Program-made: the position numbers and the translations under genes | Shown here: positions 1-6,719 of the stretch, one piece after another | Layout: each line of letters opens with the position of its first letter | Numbering within the stretch: the stretch's first letter is position 1 | Notes under the pieces: model-generated | The model's database searches: none | Told to the model about the DNA's origin: nothing | What the model saw: only the letters and a program-made list of their open reading frames with translations | Assembly (NCBI GenBank): GCA_946407705.1 | Contig: CAMJPC010000006.1 | Coordinates: 43,753 to 107,752 of the forward strand | Length of the DNA: 64,000 bases | Reading direction: 5' to 3' | From: an uncultured Clostridia bacterium | GTDB taxonomy: Bacteria; Bacillota; Clostridia; Saccharofermentanales; Saccharofermentanaceae

Positions 1-319
1 GGAAATCATCCAAAGTCTTGCGCCACTCTTCTGCCGTCAGCATTCCCTCATCGCCGTAGATACTGCCGTAGCAGTTAGTAGCCATAGGCTTTGATTCGTC
101 AGCCTGAGTCTTATAGAGGATAGGCTGAACCATCTGAGCAGCCTTCTGTTCAAGCGTCAGCGTTCCAACGATCTCTTCCGGAGTCATGGTCGCGTACCAC
201 TGGTACTTGTACTGATATTTTCCCTTGGGGAACTTTTTCGTTCCATTAGGATTTGCTGTGCATGCAGTTGTCGTAAAAAGCATTACTGCAAGCATAATTT
301 TGGCAATAGTTTTCTTCAT
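1..319 (-). CDS. Glycoside hydrolase family 3 (beta-glucosidase-like) lipoprotein, N-terminal part, truncated by window edge
   Basis: Not in the ORF track; hand translation gives MKKTIAKIMLAVMLFTTTAC (signal peptide and lipobox) ... MTPEEIVGTLTLEQKAAQMVQP, matching the typical GH3 N-terminal MTLEEKxGQMxQ motif. AAGGGGG RBS lies upstream. Confidence 0.7.
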   Translation of the reverse strand, partial: MKKTIAKIMLAVMLFTTTACTANPNGTKKFPKGKYQYKYQWYATMTPEEIVGTLTLEQKAAQMVQPILYKTQADESKPMATNCYGSIYGDEGMLTAEEWRKTLDDF

Positions 320-358: not shown

Positions 359-2131
359 TTATTTCCAGGAATTTACGGCTTTTATCGTTTCTTCAGCCGA
401 TTGTTTAGCATAGGCGTCATCAAACGTCCTGCTGTAACTGTTACCATCCAAAATGATCAGTTTTCCGTTTCGCACGGTATTTACTGCTTTTTCTGCAGGT
501 CGTGAGCTTGGAAGAAGCGTGCCCCATATAACCGCGACAGGCACTTTGCAATCCTTCAGGAAATCGTAGGTATAAACTGAGAATTTCGGTTCTTCAGAGA
601 ATGTATATTCCCCGATATCAGGCTCAACCAGGATTACTCCTTTGAGTTCATCCTGTCTGTCAGTTCCTGTATAAGAAGCAACGAATCCTCCGGCCTGATG
701 TCCCCACAGATACAGCATTTCGAGATCTACATCAGGAACATATTTCAATTCATCCATTACGGCATAAAGATCAAGTACATATTCAAATGTAAGATTGCCG
801 TGCTGAATCGGCGAATAATACTCAGTTCCGGATGTATTAGTGTCGAAAAGAACAGCCGCGTAACCATTTTCGTTGAAATAGTTTGCCATCTTCTCATATC
901 CGGCATTCTTCTCATCGCTCTGACCGTCAAGAGCCTTGCATATAACGATAGTCTTGAAAGGACCTTCACCCTTGGGGAGCATTATCTTTCCTTCGATCGG
1001 GAATCCGTTGCGGTTGAAGATTATCTGCTTCTCGGTATCGGTTATCGTAATTATTTCAGGCTTCTTAACCGTGTAATTAAACGGTGCGTCTCTCTGAACA
1101 GAGACATCACCTGTAAGCAGTTCGTCTGCCTTTGAATTAAGACCAAGAGTTGCTGCTACAAACAGGAGCGTAGCTACTATCATTACGCTGGTAAACTTCG
1201 TTCCCTTCTTGTAGCTGATGATATTTTTAACCCTGTGTGTGACTTCGGCTTTGCAGAACCTGCCGTTGCTGAATCCGAGTGGTATTACGAGGTACTTTTT
1301 ATTATTGCTTCTTTTAGCGTAATTAACGATCGAGATCGCATATGCCTGCTTGAGTTCGGTAGTCATTTTAGAGACTGTCGACTCATCGCAGCTCATCTCG
1401 AGATCCTGCTCATAAAGCGCATAAGAAAGCCATACAAAAGGATTGAACCAATGGATCGCAACGATAACTGTGCCAAGAATCTTACCGAGCCAGTCACCAT
1501 GTCTTATATGAGTTCTCTCATGCATGAGGATATATTCTCTCTCAGAATTGTCGAGCACTTCGGGAAGATATATCTTCGGAACGAAAAGACCGAATACGAA
1601 CGGTGAGCTTACTTTCTCTGATTCATATACATTCTTATCGATCTTTACTGCATCCTTTAGCTTAATCTTAAGCAGGACAAAACGCACAGCGGTATACAAA
1701 GCAACAACCGCAAAGCCAATAAACCATAAGGTTGCAAGAATCACTTTAACATTCGGAATTGCTCTTACTTTTTCATTATGAGCTTCAGTTACCATTGCTT
1801 CGCGGCGTTCTTCAGAAGCTTCAAGAGCAGCTATTTCATTATTTGTTTTAATTAACGCGGCATCAGCTTTTTCAACACCGTTATCTTCAAACACCTTTGC
1901 TTCCTGGATCTGCGTGGTAATGGCTTCGGTATGTAAAGGAATGTAATTAAATACGCTGATTACGGATTGTATATTTATCGGGAGAAGGAGCCTTACGGCT
2001 ACTACAGCCCAGAGGATCATGATGAATCTCTTTGACCTTTTGCGCAGGAGAAATCTGAACAGGATAGTAGCAAGGACTACTACGCTGCCCATGATAGACA
2101 TCTCAAGCACTTTAAGGAAAAGATCCGTCAC
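359..2131 (-). CDS. BlaR1/MecR1-type M56 metalloprotease sensor-transducer with a C-terminal degenerate alpha/beta-hydrolase domain
   Basis: N-terminal TM segments, SSPFVFGLFVPKIYLP, zinc motif HERTH, HWFNP and EMSCDE are all M56 features. After a TM helix comes an esterase-like domain (GKIMLPKGEGPF, YLWGHQAGG). Start overlaps the upstream BlaI-family stop. Confidence 0.9.
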   Translation of the reverse strand: MTDLFLKVLEMSIMGSVVVLATILFRFLLRKRSKRFIMILWAVVAVRLLLPINIQSVISVFNYIPLHTEAITTQIQEAKVFEDNGVEKADAALIKTNNEIAALEASEERREAMVTEAHNEKVRAIPNVKVILATLWFIGFAVVALYTAVRFVLLKIKLKDAVKIDKNVYESEKVSSPFVFGLFVPKIYLPEVLDNSEREYILMHERTHIRHGDWLGKILGTVIVAIHWFNPFVWLSYALYEQDLEMSCDESTVSKMTTELKQAYAISIVNYAKRSNNKKYLVIPLGFSNGRFCKAEVTHRVKNIISYKKGTKFTSVMIVATLLFVAATLGLNSKADELLTGDVSVQRDAPFNYTVKKPEIITITDTEKQIIFNRNGFPIEGKIMLPKGEGPFKTIVICKALDGQSDEKNAGYEKMANYFNENGYAAVLFDTNTSGTEYYSPIQHGNLTFEYVLDLYAVMDELKYVPDVDLEMLYLWGHQAGGFVASYTGTDRQDELKGVILVEPDIGEYTFSEEPKFSVYTYDFLKDCKVPVAVIWGTLLPSSRPAEKAVNTVRNGKLIILDGNSYSRTFDDAYAKQSAEETIKAVNSWK

Positions 2132-2511
2132 TTCTTATCGTCCTCCGTATGCGCCTTGATGAGCTTGATCAATGCTTCAGCATCCTCATCACTCAACGAT
2201 TTCTTGTTGCCGAGGAATGACGCGACGAACATAGGAAGAGAACCGGAAAAGCTCTCCTCGACTATCTGATTACTCTCTGAAATGAGAACATCCTCTTTAG
2301 GGATAAGCACACTGACTATCGTATCTTCGTTCTTAACAAAGCCCTTGGCTATCAGTTTTCTAAGAATGGTATATGTGGTCGATTTATTCCAATCGTTTAT
2401 CTCATTAGCCAGTTTAACAAGCTTACCGGATTCAACAGGAGCTTCTTTCCATATGATCTCCATAAGCTTCTTTTCTGCTTCAAACAACGTCAACTCTTGC
2501 ATTAATATCAC
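2128..2511 (-). CDS. BlaI/MecI/CopY family repressor
   Basis: LFEAEKKLMEIIW...WNKSTTYTILRKLIAKGFV...FSGSLPMFVASF...LSDEDAEAL; directly upstream of the M56 gene. Confidence 0.92.
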   Translation of the reverse strand: MILMQELTLFEAEKKLMEIIWKEAPVESGKLVKLANEINDWNKSTTYTILRKLIAKGFVKNEDTIVSVLIPKEDVLISESNQIVEESFSGSLPMFVASFLGNKKSLSDEDAEALIKLIKAHTEDDKK

Positions 2512-2523
2512 CTCAACAAAACG

Positions 2524-2576
2524 GTTTATCAGAATAAACCTATGGTTAGTTTATCTCGATAAACCGCTTATGTCAA
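2524..2576 (-). promoter_or_regulatory. Sigma-A promoter (TTGACA-17-TAAACT) with two GTTTAT-N4-ATAAAC palindromic operators
   Basis: -35 at 2571-2576 and -10 at 2548-2553 on the minus strand. Palindromes at 2524-2539 (GTTTATcagaATAAAC) and 2549-2564 (GTTTATctcgATAAAC). Confidence 0.8.
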
Positions 2577-2589
2577 TATGATTTTCAGC

Positions 2590-3381
2590 TTAATTGATCG
2601 CAGGATTATAGCAGATTACGCTTTTGTCATGCGGGCTGTACTTCTTCCCTTCAACAAGCTTGAACTCATGCTGCTTGGCAACGCCACCGAACCATTCATA
2701 GGGCTTGTCATCAGATGTCTTTCCTTCACTAATCTCAATTGCACCCTGTCGCAGGCATCTGATGAGCGAAATATCATCGAAATCCCTTGCGTGACCATGA
2801 AGAATGAAGTCAGCCTTTTCTTCTAGGAAAATGATCCTGTCCAAAGCTTTAACGTATTCAGCAAGAGGCGGACAACCATCAAGCATCATCCAAAGATGGT
2901 GGTTGATCGAGTCTCCTGTAAACAGGATCCTGTCCTCCTTAAGGAGCAGAACTATTCCACCCTGCGTATGTCCGGGGAGCTCATAAACCTCAAGAGTCTT
3001 ACCGCCCAGATCAATGACATCTCCTTCCTTGATCAGCTTGAACGGAGGCATTGAAAAGCCATACGTCTCACAAGCCTTAACAAAATCCGGGTGCTTAACA
3101 AATGACTCAGCCATCTCAAGATCCTTAGGATGGATATAAGCCTCATCAAAATACACGTTACCGAAAATGTGATCAGGATGACCATGTGTATTGATTACAA
3201 CGATCGGTTTATCAGTGAACTTTCTGATGAAACTCTTGATATCAGTGAAACCGTTCATTGTATCGATCACGGCAACCTTTTCCTCTCCTTCCACCACAAA
3301 ACCAGTGGCGAGATGTCCCTCATCCAAAAGATAGAGATAAGGCTTAAGCTGCTTCGGGAAAAGCTCCAGTTTCTCTTCCAT
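2590..3381 (-). CDS. MBL-fold metallo-hydrolase
   Basis: THGHPDH motif, PGHTQG and FTGD. Start moved to the ATG at 3381, behind a GGGAGGA RBS. Confidence 0.88.
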   Translation of the reverse strand: MEEKLELFPKQLKPYLYLLDEGHLATGFVVEGEEKVAVIDTMNGFTDIKSFIRKFTDKPIVVINTHGHPDHIFGNVYFDEAYIHPKDLEMAESFVKHPDFVKACETYGFSMPPFKLIKEGDVIDLGGKTLEVYELPGHTQGGIVLLLKEDRILFTGDSINHHLWMMLDGCPPLAEYVKALDRIIFLEEKADFILHGHARDFDDISLIRCLRQGAIEISEGKTSDDKPYEWFGGVAKQHEFKLVEGKKYSPHDKSVICYNPAIN

Positions 3382-3472
3382 ATATAGATCCTCCCTTAAA
3401 CAATACAAAGCACGATAATTATATCAATAACCGGTAATGATATGGGGACAATTCAGTACAAGCTAAAAGAAA

Positions 3473-4835: not shown

Positions 4836-6719
4836 CTATTTTGTTTCTTCAACTGACTCTACTGTTATTTTCGGGCCCTGATCACCCTTATCGAAATTAC
4901 CCGTTATTCCGTCTCCCGTATTAGGAACGAAAGCCGAATAGATAACGTCAATGATGAAAAACACGAGAAGAACGGCCTCGACCGGGATAAGTATCTTCTG
5001 CTGGGCTTTTCTGATCATATTATCAAGAAGCGGCGCCAGAACATATATGAATGCCATTCCTGCAGCACCGAAAACGAAAAGTCCTTCCGCACAGACCCTG
5101 CCGTCGATATTGAAGAAATACCCTGAATAATCCCACCATTTCTTGTCGAAGATTGTTTCCAGAGCCCATCCACCGAAATACTCGACTACTCCGCACAAGA
5201 TAACGGTCGCAATAAGATGGAGCACAGGCCTGCGCCTTAATACAAACAAGAATATCAATACGATCAGTCCGCCGACGCCGTATATCGGGAGCCACGGTCC
5301 GTGAAGCACGCCGCGGTTGATTATCTTGCCCTGCTGGACATAATAGAAAAACAGTTCCCATACCCAGCCGAACATTGCAAAGATAAAGAACAATGCCGCA
5401 AGCGAAGGCAACGAATAATGGCGCATGTAATGAATATGTGCCAAAGACTTGAGTTTTCGCTGTTCGGGGATCGGAGACAGTCTTGAAGGATAGCTCTCCC
5501 CTTCTGCTTCATTCTTGTAAGCGAGGAGCTTAACACGGCGTTCTTCGTCAGCCTCATATTCCATCTCGTCCTTGGTGTTCCAGAGAACGACACCGAAATG
5601 ATCGGCTATGAACTTGTTCCTGCCTTTAAGACCGTCCAGTGTAGGTTTTTCGGCATCGAGCTCTCCCAACACATCCGCATACGCATCAGTAAGCCTGTTA
5701 TTGTCTGCCTTTGCAAACAGATAGATATCGTTGAGCTGGTCGACTCCCTCAATCTCATTTTGCTTTGCTGCTTCCCTGACCCTTGCATAGAACTCGGAAT
5801 AGATGCAGAGCTTATACGGGTTGGTATACAGGATGCCGAATACGCCGAGAGTGAAAATATTCAGTATGTTCCAGCCCAAAATACTGATAATGGTCTTAAA
5901 CAGAGTCCATTTGTTGCCTCTCATCATCCTCCACGAAAGCTTAAGGGCTTCTATGGTCTTGATGTCCGGATTTTCGGCGATAATGTAAGGCACAAGGAAA
6001 AATCCGAACCTGACTACCGGATAAAGGACGATAGTCAGAGACGACGCAAATTCGATCATCCACAAAAGTCCCATGGTAACAGCCGATCTCGCCCACCTCT
6101 TCATGCGTATGAAGAAAAGGTAGCGTGAAACCGGGATCTTCTTATAGATCCTGCCTTCAAGGAAAATCCTTCTGATTATGGCAACGAAAAGATTACGTAC
6201 AAACAGCCAGTAAGTAAACGAGACAAGCGCCAGTATGGTAACTATGGCAATATTGGCTGCACGCGGGTCTCCCACTATGCCGGATATGGTTGAATACATA
6301 TGCGAAAAGAATGTATCGCCGGCAACAAAATCGATTATCTGATTGAGAACGCCCTTACTCCTTCCGAAAACCTCAGAACCTTCAGGGCTCGTTATCTTAC
6401 GGTTAAATTCCTCCAGCTGCTTTTCAACATTAGTGCGGAAAACGCCGGCATCATTATCCAATGCCTTAACGCCTTCTTTGATCTTTTCTCCGGTCTCGGG
6501 ATCAACGTTCACCTGAATGGATGTATCGGCGAACATATCAAAGAACGTAGAACGCATGTTGATCAGATAGTCAGAGGTGATGAACTCGGCATCCATGAAC
6601 ACAGCAAGAAGACAGGCCACTACAAAGAACAGATAGTGACGCTTCAAGCTTCCACGGGCATCACGCTTGAGCATACGGATGCCGTATTCCATTTTATTTT
6701 TCTTTTTTTCTTTGGACAT
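4836..6719 (-). CDS. Polytopic membrane protein: DUF975-like N-terminal part plus C-terminal CmpB/TMEM229-like (putative ABC permease) domain
   Basis: LVPYIIAENPDIKTIEALKLSWRMMRGNKW (DUF975-like); GWVWE...NRGVLHGPWLPIYG...WWDYS...GRVC (CmpB-like). Confidence 0.75.
   Translation of the reverse strand: MSKEKKKNKMEYGIRMLKRDARGSLKRHYLFFVVACLLAVFMDAEFITSDYLINMRSTFFDMFADTSIQVNVDPETGEKIKEGVKALDNDAGVFRTNVEKQLEEFNRKITSPEGSEVFGRSKGVLNQIIDFVAGDTFFSHMYSTISGIVGDPRAANIAIVTILALVSFTYWLFVRNLFVAIIRRIFLEGRIYKKIPVSRYLFFIRMKRWARSAVTMGLLWMIEFASSLTIVLYPVVRFGFFLVPYIIAENPDIKTIEALKLSWRMMRGNKWTLFKTIISILGWNILNIFTLGVFGILYTNPYKLCIYSEFYARVREAAKQNEIEGVDQLNDIYLFAKADNNRLTDAYADVLGELDAEKPTLDGLKGRNKFIADHFGVVLWNTKDEMEYEADEERRVKLLAYKNEAEGESYPSRLSPIPEQRKLKSLAHIHYMRHYSLPSLAALFFIFAMFGWVWELFFYYVQQGKIINRGVLHGPWLPIYGVGGLIVLIFLFVLRRRPVLHLIATVILCGVVEYFGGWALETIFDKKWWDYSGYFFNIDGRVCAEGLFVFGAAGMAFIYVLAPLLDNMIRKAQQKILIPVEAVLLVFFIIDVIYSAFVPNTGDGITGNFDKGDQGPKITVESVEETK

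Follow-up and report, generated by a model that had tools for sequence, protein, structure and literature searches.

A predicted catalytically dead α/β-hydrolase in place of the penicillin-binding domain in a BlaR1-type M56 sensor protein of an uncultured Clostridia bacterium

What might a BlaR-type membrane protein sense when its penicillin-binding domain is missing and an enzyme-like domain stands in its place? BlaR1 and MecR1 are the textbook example of antibiotic sensing by regulated proteolysis, and the signals of many M56 homologues that do not bind penicillin are an open question. The question is raised here by a blaR-like gene at positions 359–2131 (minus strand) of a 64,000-nucleotide stretch of DNA, hereafter the window, taken from contig CAMJPC010000006.1 (positions 43,753 to 107,752, assembly GCA_946407705.1) of an uncultured member of the Saccharofermentanaceae. 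From a GTG start, the gene encodes a protein of 590 amino acids (aa) comprising an M56 protease, four transmembrane (TM) helices and a C-terminal, putative pseudo-esterase ectodomain. The protein is probably a one-component proteolytic transducer of the BlaR1 type in which a catalytically dead α/β-hydrolase, derived from secreted lipoprotein esterases, has taken the place of the penicillin sensor. A full-text literature search found no description of an M56/α/β-hydrolase or pseudoenzyme sensor, and nothing relevant on BlaI/BlaR in connection with glycoside hydrolases or the rumen.

The membrane half of the protein was assigned by Pfam search to Peptidase_M56, with 152.4 bits over residues 7–279 (window positions 1295–2113, minus strand) against a cut-off of 31, which places it within the family. 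The HERTH zinc motif (residues 204–208; 1508–1522, minus strand) is intact, as the initial annotation had stated, and is completed to HExxH...E...D by E245 (1397–1399) and D249 (1385–1387). The full site of H204, E205, H208, E245 and D249, with Glu at +41 and Asp at +45, has the same spacing as H201, E242 and D246 of Staphylococcus aureus BlaR1 (PMC9834060). HExxH is kept in 27 of the 28 orthologs described below, the exception being a truncated fragment. Hydropathy analysis gave four TM segments, at about residues 3–31, 34–58, 124–158 and 311–334, and residues 59–123 form a loop of about 65 aa in the position equivalent to extracellular loop 1 (EL1) of BlaR1. This is the layout of BlaR1, with the protease between TM3 and TM4 and the C-terminal domain (345–590) predicted to be extracellular; the free-standing relatives of that domain are extracytoplasmic lipoproteins. 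Searches of Pfam and NCBIfam gave no transpeptidase or β-lactamase Pfam match and no SxxK penicillin-binding sensor domain anywhere in the 590 aa. The NCBIfam model blaR1_generic has a cut-off of 400 bits; the protein scored 89, and only residues 12–326, in the N-terminal half, were aligned. The protein appears to have every structural hallmark of the M56/BlaR family save the penicillin-binding sensor, which points to a BlaR1-like mode of working rather than to a β-lactam sensor.

The domain found in the sensor position, residues 345–590 (362–1099, minus strand), is predicted to adopt an α/β-hydrolase fold. Pfam matches over residues 337–507 were weak (Hydrolase_4, 30.9 bits; FrsA-like, 24.6 bits). 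In a phmmer search of all PDB chains, the best match was 7z2u, the ferulic acid esterase of Lentilactobacillus buchneri (E = 5e-7; 7z2v is its S114A variant), followed by a thermophilic lipase and then by the cinnamoyl esterase LJ0536 of Lactobacillus johnsonii. An AlphaFold2 (AF2) model of the full-length protein, built with 18 homologues, had predicted local distance difference test (pLDDT) values of about 85–92 across most of residues 350–590, with a few 10-residue blocks at 48–73. When the model was compared with the PDB by Foldseek, 7z2u again came first (E = 2e-13), followed by 7q4j, 3pf8, 7xri and Est1E (2wtm), with target TM-scores of 0.63–0.76 (0.68–0.73 for the top matches). The leading matches are feruloyl and cinnamoyl esterases, the thermophilic lipase and related lid-bearing α/β-hydrolases; more than 1400 PDB matches had E ≤ 1e-3, and those listed are α/β-hydrolases. 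The model and its matches agree with the initial annotation, which had proposed this fold, and argue against a different one.

The nearest solved structures, the ferulic and cinnamoyl esterases 7z2u, L. johnsonii LJ0536 (3pf8) and Butyrivibrio Est1E (2wtm), are the best matches in both sequence and structure and share with the ectodomain the core and the position and shape of the elbow (G-H-x-x-G-G). They differ from it at about 20% identity, in the replacement of Ser by Gln and of His by Tyr, in the shortened acid loop and in a lid insertion of about 31 residues between β6 and β7 that is missing here; nor are they tethered, as the ectodomain is, to a membrane protease. The profile match is continuous in the lid-less clade and split in lid-bearing relatives.

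The catalytic positions of the former esterase appear altered throughout. At the nucleophile elbow, WGHQAGG (residues 476–482), Gln479 was aligned by phmmer onto the nucleophile Ser114 of 7z2u (GHQAG on GESLG). Its codon, CAG at 695–697 (minus strand; ctg on the plus strand), is at least two changes away from every Ser codon. The acid loop, IWGTLL (residues 535–540; 512–529, minus strand), is aligned with "vygtnd" of 7z2u (WGT--LLP on YGTNDFIP) and with GTHDGYGD in those intact relatives that are closest; compared with theirs, the loop is 4–5 residues shorter, and it contains neither Asp nor Glu. The His loop, GNSYSR (residues 563–568; 428–445, minus strand), is aligned with DGADH[SYF] of the intact relatives, has a two-residue insertion and carries Tyr566 at the position of the catalytic His. 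These three changes, read from the DNA in the initial annotation, are borne out by the alignments. A fourth, the replacement of the oxyanion HG, is borne out in part. The KA of CKALDG does align with HG of 7z2u in phmmer, but as a general feature the claim falls, the change holding only for the sub-clade of the window copy: the nearest intact relatives read [SCN]-G-L at this position, and other sensor orthologs keep Gly (CG.. or LG..). An alternative Ser-His-Asp triad, for which the initial annotation had advised looking, is not visible in the ectodomain in sequence alignments. The catalytic triad thus appears to be lost, and by alignment the domain lacks all three catalytic features of the feruloyl-type esterases as well as their lid.

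Is this one copy of an esterase in decay, or a conserved state? A word-index search provided 27 further fused proteins with 47–99% ectodomain identity, giving 28 fused clusters in all, together with one free-standing relative of 344 aa. The nucleophile position is Gln in 27 clusters and His in one, and LWGH[Q/H]xGG is found in all, so that Ser is present in none of the 28. Similarly, the His position is Tyr in 26 and Phe in two, with [DE]GNS[Y/F] in all, and the shortened acid loop [IVF]WG[TK][LM] is found in 28/28. Loss of the triad is therefore conserved, contrary to the possibility that orthologs keep Ser and only this copy is decaying. No stop codon or frameshift was found in any ortholog gene. 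Ratios of nonsynonymous to synonymous substitution (dN/dS, Nei–Gojobori) were 0.12–0.18 for the ectodomain, 0.13–0.21 for the M56 half, 0.04–0.09 for the downstream gene of glycoside hydrolase family 3 (GH3) and 0.02–0.06 for BlaI, values that are rough with dS at about 1 in most pairs. The ectodomain is under purifying selection much like that on the M56 half, as judged from these ratios. A single decaying copy was rejected because the orthologs are free of stops and frameshifts and dN/dS is far below 1.

Conservation is also uneven within the domain. Across sequences down to 48% identity, 63 of the 246 ectodomain columns are invariant, and the five former active-site loops are richer in them than the remainder (18/41 vs 45/205; one-sided Fisher p = 0.004). 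A cryptic enzyme might be considered here, one that hydrolyzes its substrate through non-canonical residues such as Ser565 of the GNS triplet together with His478, both of which are invariant within the ortholog clade. Nevertheless, the active relatives conserve His478 to the same degree (GHSxGG) without using it in catalysis, the Gly-Asn-Ser triplet is confined to the clade, the other fused lineages differ at every such site, and the acid loop is absent; such an enzyme is highly improbable. A pseudo-esterase carried by an M56 sensor, as first proposed from the DNA, gains support from the fold prediction, the conserved loss of the triad (28/28) and the dN/dS ratios, and we infer that it binds a ligand.

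The ectodomain is also the part of the operon that diverges fastest. Between the window and the ortholog locus L001, identity is 47% in the ectodomain, 79% in M56, 87% in BlaI and 91% in GH3. Between L003 and L007, dS rises from 0.03 in M56 through 0.48 in the ectodomain to 0.88 in GH3, so the operon is a mosaic. These values suggest recombination breakpoints at the domain boundaries, and the fast-diverging, mosaic ectodomains could be specificity variants swapped by recombination. A conserved 12-residue tail with two Cys, Y-C-E-D-C-N-A-Y-Y-L-D-E, follows the ectodomain in several orthologs (P0009–P0014 and P0016) and is absent from the window copy.

From where was the domain recruited? An exhaustive phmmer search of 1.84 billion representative sequences gave 530 matches; among the non-fused ones, those closest are lipoproteins of 270–480 aa encoded by organisms of the same kind. 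The related loci are labelled as metagenome-assembled genomes of Saccharofermentans sp., Ruminococcaceae or Clostridiales, from rumen and gut. The free-standing lipoprotein hydrolases of rumen Clostridia (P0029, P0031–P0045, L008–L016 and C1:337329-338063) share with the ectodomain 33–42% identity, a lid-less core, the LDLYAVMD helix and an extracytoplasmic location. They differ from it in keeping GHSxGG, GTHDGYGD and DGADH, and have neither an M56 fusion nor an adjacent blaI. In the domain alignment, all 12 free-standing relatives keep GHS[MLFIVY]GG, the longer acid loop (typically GTHDGYGD) and DGADH, and all of the other free-standing copies keep the GHSMGG elbow. One such intact paralog is present in this genome (C1:337329-338063, minus strand; L021 1495-2919), as a 474-aa lipoprotein in which an N-terminal domain of about 230 aa is followed by GHSFGG, GTHDGYGD and DGADH. 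The gene neighbourhoods of six free-standing active relatives (L008–L016) contained only other lipoproteins of unknown function and gave no hint of a substrate.

Five more fused sub-lineages, at 33–42% identity, were revealed by the phmmer search and by scanning 143 genomes in the family. The M56-fused set thus comprises 31 sequences over six sub-lineages, 18 in the domain alignment and 13 genome copies, and a complete triad is found in none of the 31. At the nucleophile position, the other fused sub-lineages read GHE, GHD, GQD, GAD, VDD, GAG or GDG. Some distant fused paralogs do hold Ser (GHS or GYS), yet have no His in the His loop, and among the fused paralogs His is retained only in P0030, where Asp replaces Ser. 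A maximum-likelihood tree built from the domain places all fused copies on one side of a branch with a Shimodaira–Hasegawa-like approximate likelihood ratio (SH-aLRT) support of 96. This placement agrees with a domain that was recruited once and whose catalysis was then eroded independently. The sensor domain probably derives from free-standing lipoprotein hydrolases.

The gene is the second of an operon in the order blaI-blaR-cargo. The first gene (2128–2502, minus strand; ATG at 2502) encodes a BlaI-like repressor of 124 aa (PF03965, 71.5 bits), whose stop codon overlaps the GTG start of blaR as GTGA, an arrangement of translational coupling. S95–F96 of the repressor is aligned with the N101–F102 cleavage site of MecI, and the P1' Phe is kept. 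Upstream, the sole good promoter is sigma-70-like, TTGACA-17-TAAACT (2548–2576, minus strand), and agrees with the consensus at 10 of 12 positions. It is covered by two 16-bp palindromes, GTTTAT-N4-ATAAAC, as candidate operators (2524–2539 and 2549–2564, minus strand), the latter covering the spacer and the -10 hexamer and the former preceding the ribosome-binding site. The arrangement is kept, with small variations, upstream of blaI in four ortholog loci (L001–L004). The exact motif was found nowhere else in the 2.67-Mb genome, and the regulon is probably the blaI-blaR-GH3 operon alone. No terminator-like site was found on the minus strand from the promoter to the left edge of the window, including the gap between blaR and GH3.

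The third gene begins 40 bp past the blaR stop (5' end at 1–319, minus strand) and extends beyond the left edge of the window. It encodes a lipoprotein of 814 aa with the N- and C-terminal domains of GH3, closest to exo-1,3/1,4-β-glucanases and barley ExoI (E = 1e-86 to 1e-75). All seven ortholog loci carry a GH3 orthologue downstream of blaR, and two of them have, between these two genes, an additional gene for an S12/PF00144 lipoprotein that resembles DD-peptidases. A muropeptide-recycling NagZ/AmiE pair, as "PF00144 + GH3" might be read, was rejected for GH3, which is of the ExoI/ExoP type.

By analogy with BlaR1, a mechanism can be proposed for the operon. In BlaR1, an extracellular loop sits in the sensor active site and is displaced when a β-lactam acylates the sensor; the domains then shift toward the membrane and the protease cuts BlaI (PMC9834060). 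In the protein described here, the pseudo-esterase would hold a ligand in the cleft of its former active site, with neither turnover nor covalent chemistry. Occupancy would alter the packing of the ectodomain against the extracellular loop and the membrane helices and so switch on the cytoplasmic M56 protease. The protease would cut the BlaI-like repressor, probably at S95–F96, and the repressor would then leave the two candidate operators that cover the single blaI-blaR-GH3 promoter. The predicted output is more sensor and more of the exo-β-glucosidase-type GH3 lipoprotein, and in some relatives also the S12 serine hydrolase. We infer proteolytic derepression of the operon from the likeness to BlaR1.

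Several observations weigh against this account, or against particular versions of it. The membrane half of the AF2 model, at the N-terminus, has pLDDT below 50, and contacts between ectodomain and loop are unreadable from it. The dN/dS ratios are rough, as noted above. The ectodomain has no lid, with 14 residues between the aligned blocks in phmmer compared with 45 in 7z2u, and ferulate specificity is not transferable from the nearest esterases because the lid that shapes their ferulate pocket is absent. Finally, the cargo of the fused paralogs varies, and includes GH3, the S12 hydrolase, AT3 acyltransferases, two sugar-type ATP-binding cassette (ABC) permeases with a tautomerase, and a transglutaminase-like lipoprotein. 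No single ligand class can be derived because the cargo genes differ among the fused sub-lineages; the mixture fits nutrient acquisition and also envelope remodelling.

The second of these possibilities deserves separate consideration. The dead esterase might detect an antimicrobial or a piece of the cell wall such as an O-acylated muropeptide, and the operon might remodel or recycle the envelope in response to such stress, somewhat in the manner of the NagZ/AmiE pair or of the bla system. All characterized BlaR systems respond to wall-active drugs; the S12/PF00144 cargo in two of the seven ortholog loci and in one sister lineage is closest to DD-carboxypeptidases and D-peptidases; AT3 acyltransferases and the transglutaminase-like lipoprotein adjoin other fused lineages; and the same genome encodes an M56 protein with an NlpC/P60-like ectodomain. 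The GH3 cargo nonetheless speaks against this reading. It is invariant, and its resemblance to exo-glucanases and ExoI is far better than that to NagZ/YbbD (E = 7e-26). Its best NCBIfam matches are xylosidase/arabinosidase and BglX, with β-N-acetylhexosaminidase at 48.9 bits against a cut-off of 207. The motif of NagZ is KHFPGHG...D[ST]H, and the GH3 protein reads KHFFGDG. Sugar ABC permeases are recurrent beside the fused paralogs, and the SxxK penicillin-binding sensor is absent. An envelope or antimicrobial stress sensor is thus unlikely.

The cargo bears on another interpretation. The GH3 and S12/PF00144 lipoproteins end in homologous domains of about 190 aa (36% identity, E = 4e-30) that match no Pfam family (L001:13494-14048 and L001:11005-11568; in this genome, the GH3 C-terminus at approximately C6:41627-42190, to the left of the window). 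Its AF2 model has a pLDDT of 88.8 and resembles envelope proteins of the PsbP, DcrB, LpqN and TiME type (Foldseek E = 8e-6, TM-score about 0.5), a fold that gives no hint of a substrate. As folds of this PsbP/DcrB/LpqN-like kind are typical of envelope protein–protein scaffolds, the ectodomain could be a neuroligin-like docking or structural module whose partner is, for example, an active lipoprotein esterase or this cargo tail, or it could merely stabilize a transducer whose signal enters elsewhere. The lack of a lid and the much faster divergence of the ectodomain than of the rest of the operon (47% vs 79–91% identity, window vs L001) would suit such a role. The invariant residues, on the other hand, are concentrated in the former active-site loops, evidence for any partner protein is lacking, and a 307-aa M56 protein without a sensor in the same genome indicates that an ectodomain is not required for stability. 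We regard a docking or stabilizing module as very unlikely.

We return to a ligand-binding pseudo-esterase and to what its ligand might be. As a first guess, which we hold tentatively, it is a fragment of a plant glycan that bears esters or other decorations, because hydroxycinnamoyl esterases are the enzymes nearest to the ectodomain and an exo-β-glycosidase is the invariant output in these fibre-degrading rumen Clostridia. The narrower idea of a ferulate ester has the nearest solved structures as its sole basis and is a guess. In a broader form, the BlaR1 chassis may have been turned into a nutrient sensor: a secreted esterase would have been captured once, would have lost catalysis lineage by lineage, each in its own way, and would by now have become the receptor for ester-bearing fragments of the plant cell wall (such as feruloylated or acetylated oligosaccharides), whose binding would switch on glycosidases, transporters and acyl-handling enzymes through proteolysis of a BlaI repressor. 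This picture is possible, although we consider it doubtful at present.

How does the locus compare with known systems? The BlaR1/MecR1–BlaI/MecI pairs of S. aureus and Bacillus licheniformis are alike in the M56 HExxH...E...D between TM3 and TM4, the four TM helices, the C-terminal extracellular sensor, the adjacent winged-helix repressor (PF03965) with Phe at the aligned P1' and the operators, here candidates, that overlap the promoter. In both cases, the sensor is an enzyme-derived domain that would not turn over its ligand. In BlaR1, however, the sensor is of the class-D-β-lactamase-like SxxK type and is acylated, whereas the α/β-hydrolase described here has no nucleophile, which makes acylation impossible. 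The gene order also differs, with one operon in place of the divergon of the bla and mec systems, as do the palindrome (GTTTAT-N4-ATAAAC compared with the TACA/TGTA core of BlaI/MecI/CopY) and the cargo, a GH3 glycosidase unlike that of the BlaR1/MecR1 systems. Atypical M56/BlaI pairs that do not sense β-lactams, BlaR of Mycobacterium tuberculosis and Mycobacterium abscessus and PvmS of Pseudomonas aeruginosa, have no ectodomain (bioRxiv 10.64898/2026.08.03.742534); here, in contrast, a new one has been added.

Similar working is known from unrelated proteins, the RsgI anti-sigma-I sensors of Clostridium thermocellum, in which extracellular carbohydrate-binding or glycoside hydrolase-like modules sense plant polysaccharide and proteolysis frees a transcription factor that induces glycoside hydrolases (PMC4711584, PMC10328401). 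RsgI systems differ in using autoproteolysis and RseP rather than M56 and BlaI, and no α/β-hydrolase sensor has been reported for them. A bacterial precedent for the α/β-hydrolase fold in perception is RsbQ of Bacillus subtilis, with D14 and KAI2 as the plant receptors (bioRxiv 10.1101/2023.12.05.570042). Unlike the ectodomain described here, RsbQ, D14 and KAI2 have retained an active triad and hydrolyze their ligand. RsbQ, D14/KAI2, GID1 and the neuroligins are either soluble or act in adhesion, and fusion to a membrane protease is known for none of them. GID1 and the neuroligins are α/β-hydrolase-fold proteins that have also lost catalytic residues.

Five M56 proteins are encoded in this genome, with ectodomains that are NlpC/P60-like, double β-helix, unassigned, absent and pseudo-esterase. 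The first is a 505-aa protein (C23:12677-13528, minus strand, outside the window) with a C-terminal match to PF00877 of 31.9 bits. The family consensus at the catalytic motif of NlpC/P60 is GFDCSG, and this paralog reads GFDNKGF; it may have lost the catalytic Cys and be another dead-enzyme ectodomain. The further paralogs (C2:319304-320239, plus strand; C8:89220-90068, plus strand; C1:141918-142670, minus strand) are proteins of 920 aa with two right-handed β-helix modules (PF13229), 575 aa with the unassigned ectodomain, and 307 aa with none. M56 is a modular sensor chassis in this genome, and the pseudo-esterase is therefore a less singular case than it would otherwise seem.

Among the neighbouring genes of the window, a metallo-β-lactamase (MBL)-fold hydrolase gene (2590–3408, minus strand; PF00753, 83 bits) immediately precedes the blaI promoter, and the two are not separated by a terminator. 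This gene was considered as part of the system and rejected, as it is not conserved beside the orthologs. Farther upstream, at 4836–6719 (minus strand), is a gene for a 627-aa membrane protein in which DUF975 is fused to a CmpB-type "putative ABC-transporter type IV" domain (PF06541, 153 bits).

The locus is a tractable one, with a three-gene operon, a defined promoter, two candidate operators that occur nowhere else in the genome, an output enzyme that is obvious and an ectodomain that is soluble and models well, and it could supply an orthogonal, proteolysis-based part for biosensors. It is also a natural experiment in pseudoenzyme evolution, as the triad has been lost differently in each of the six sub-lineages while active paralogs are retained in the same genomes. 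If the esterase-derived nutrient sensor is real, no BlaR-type system before it would have been shown to sense a nutrient derived from carbohydrate, and it would be the first bacterial membrane receptor made from a dead α/β-hydrolase, and its divergent, recombining ectodomain alleles would be specificity variants. Should the ligand be a fragment of plant fibre, the finding would bear on how uncultured fibre degraders of the rumen regulate their glycosidases.

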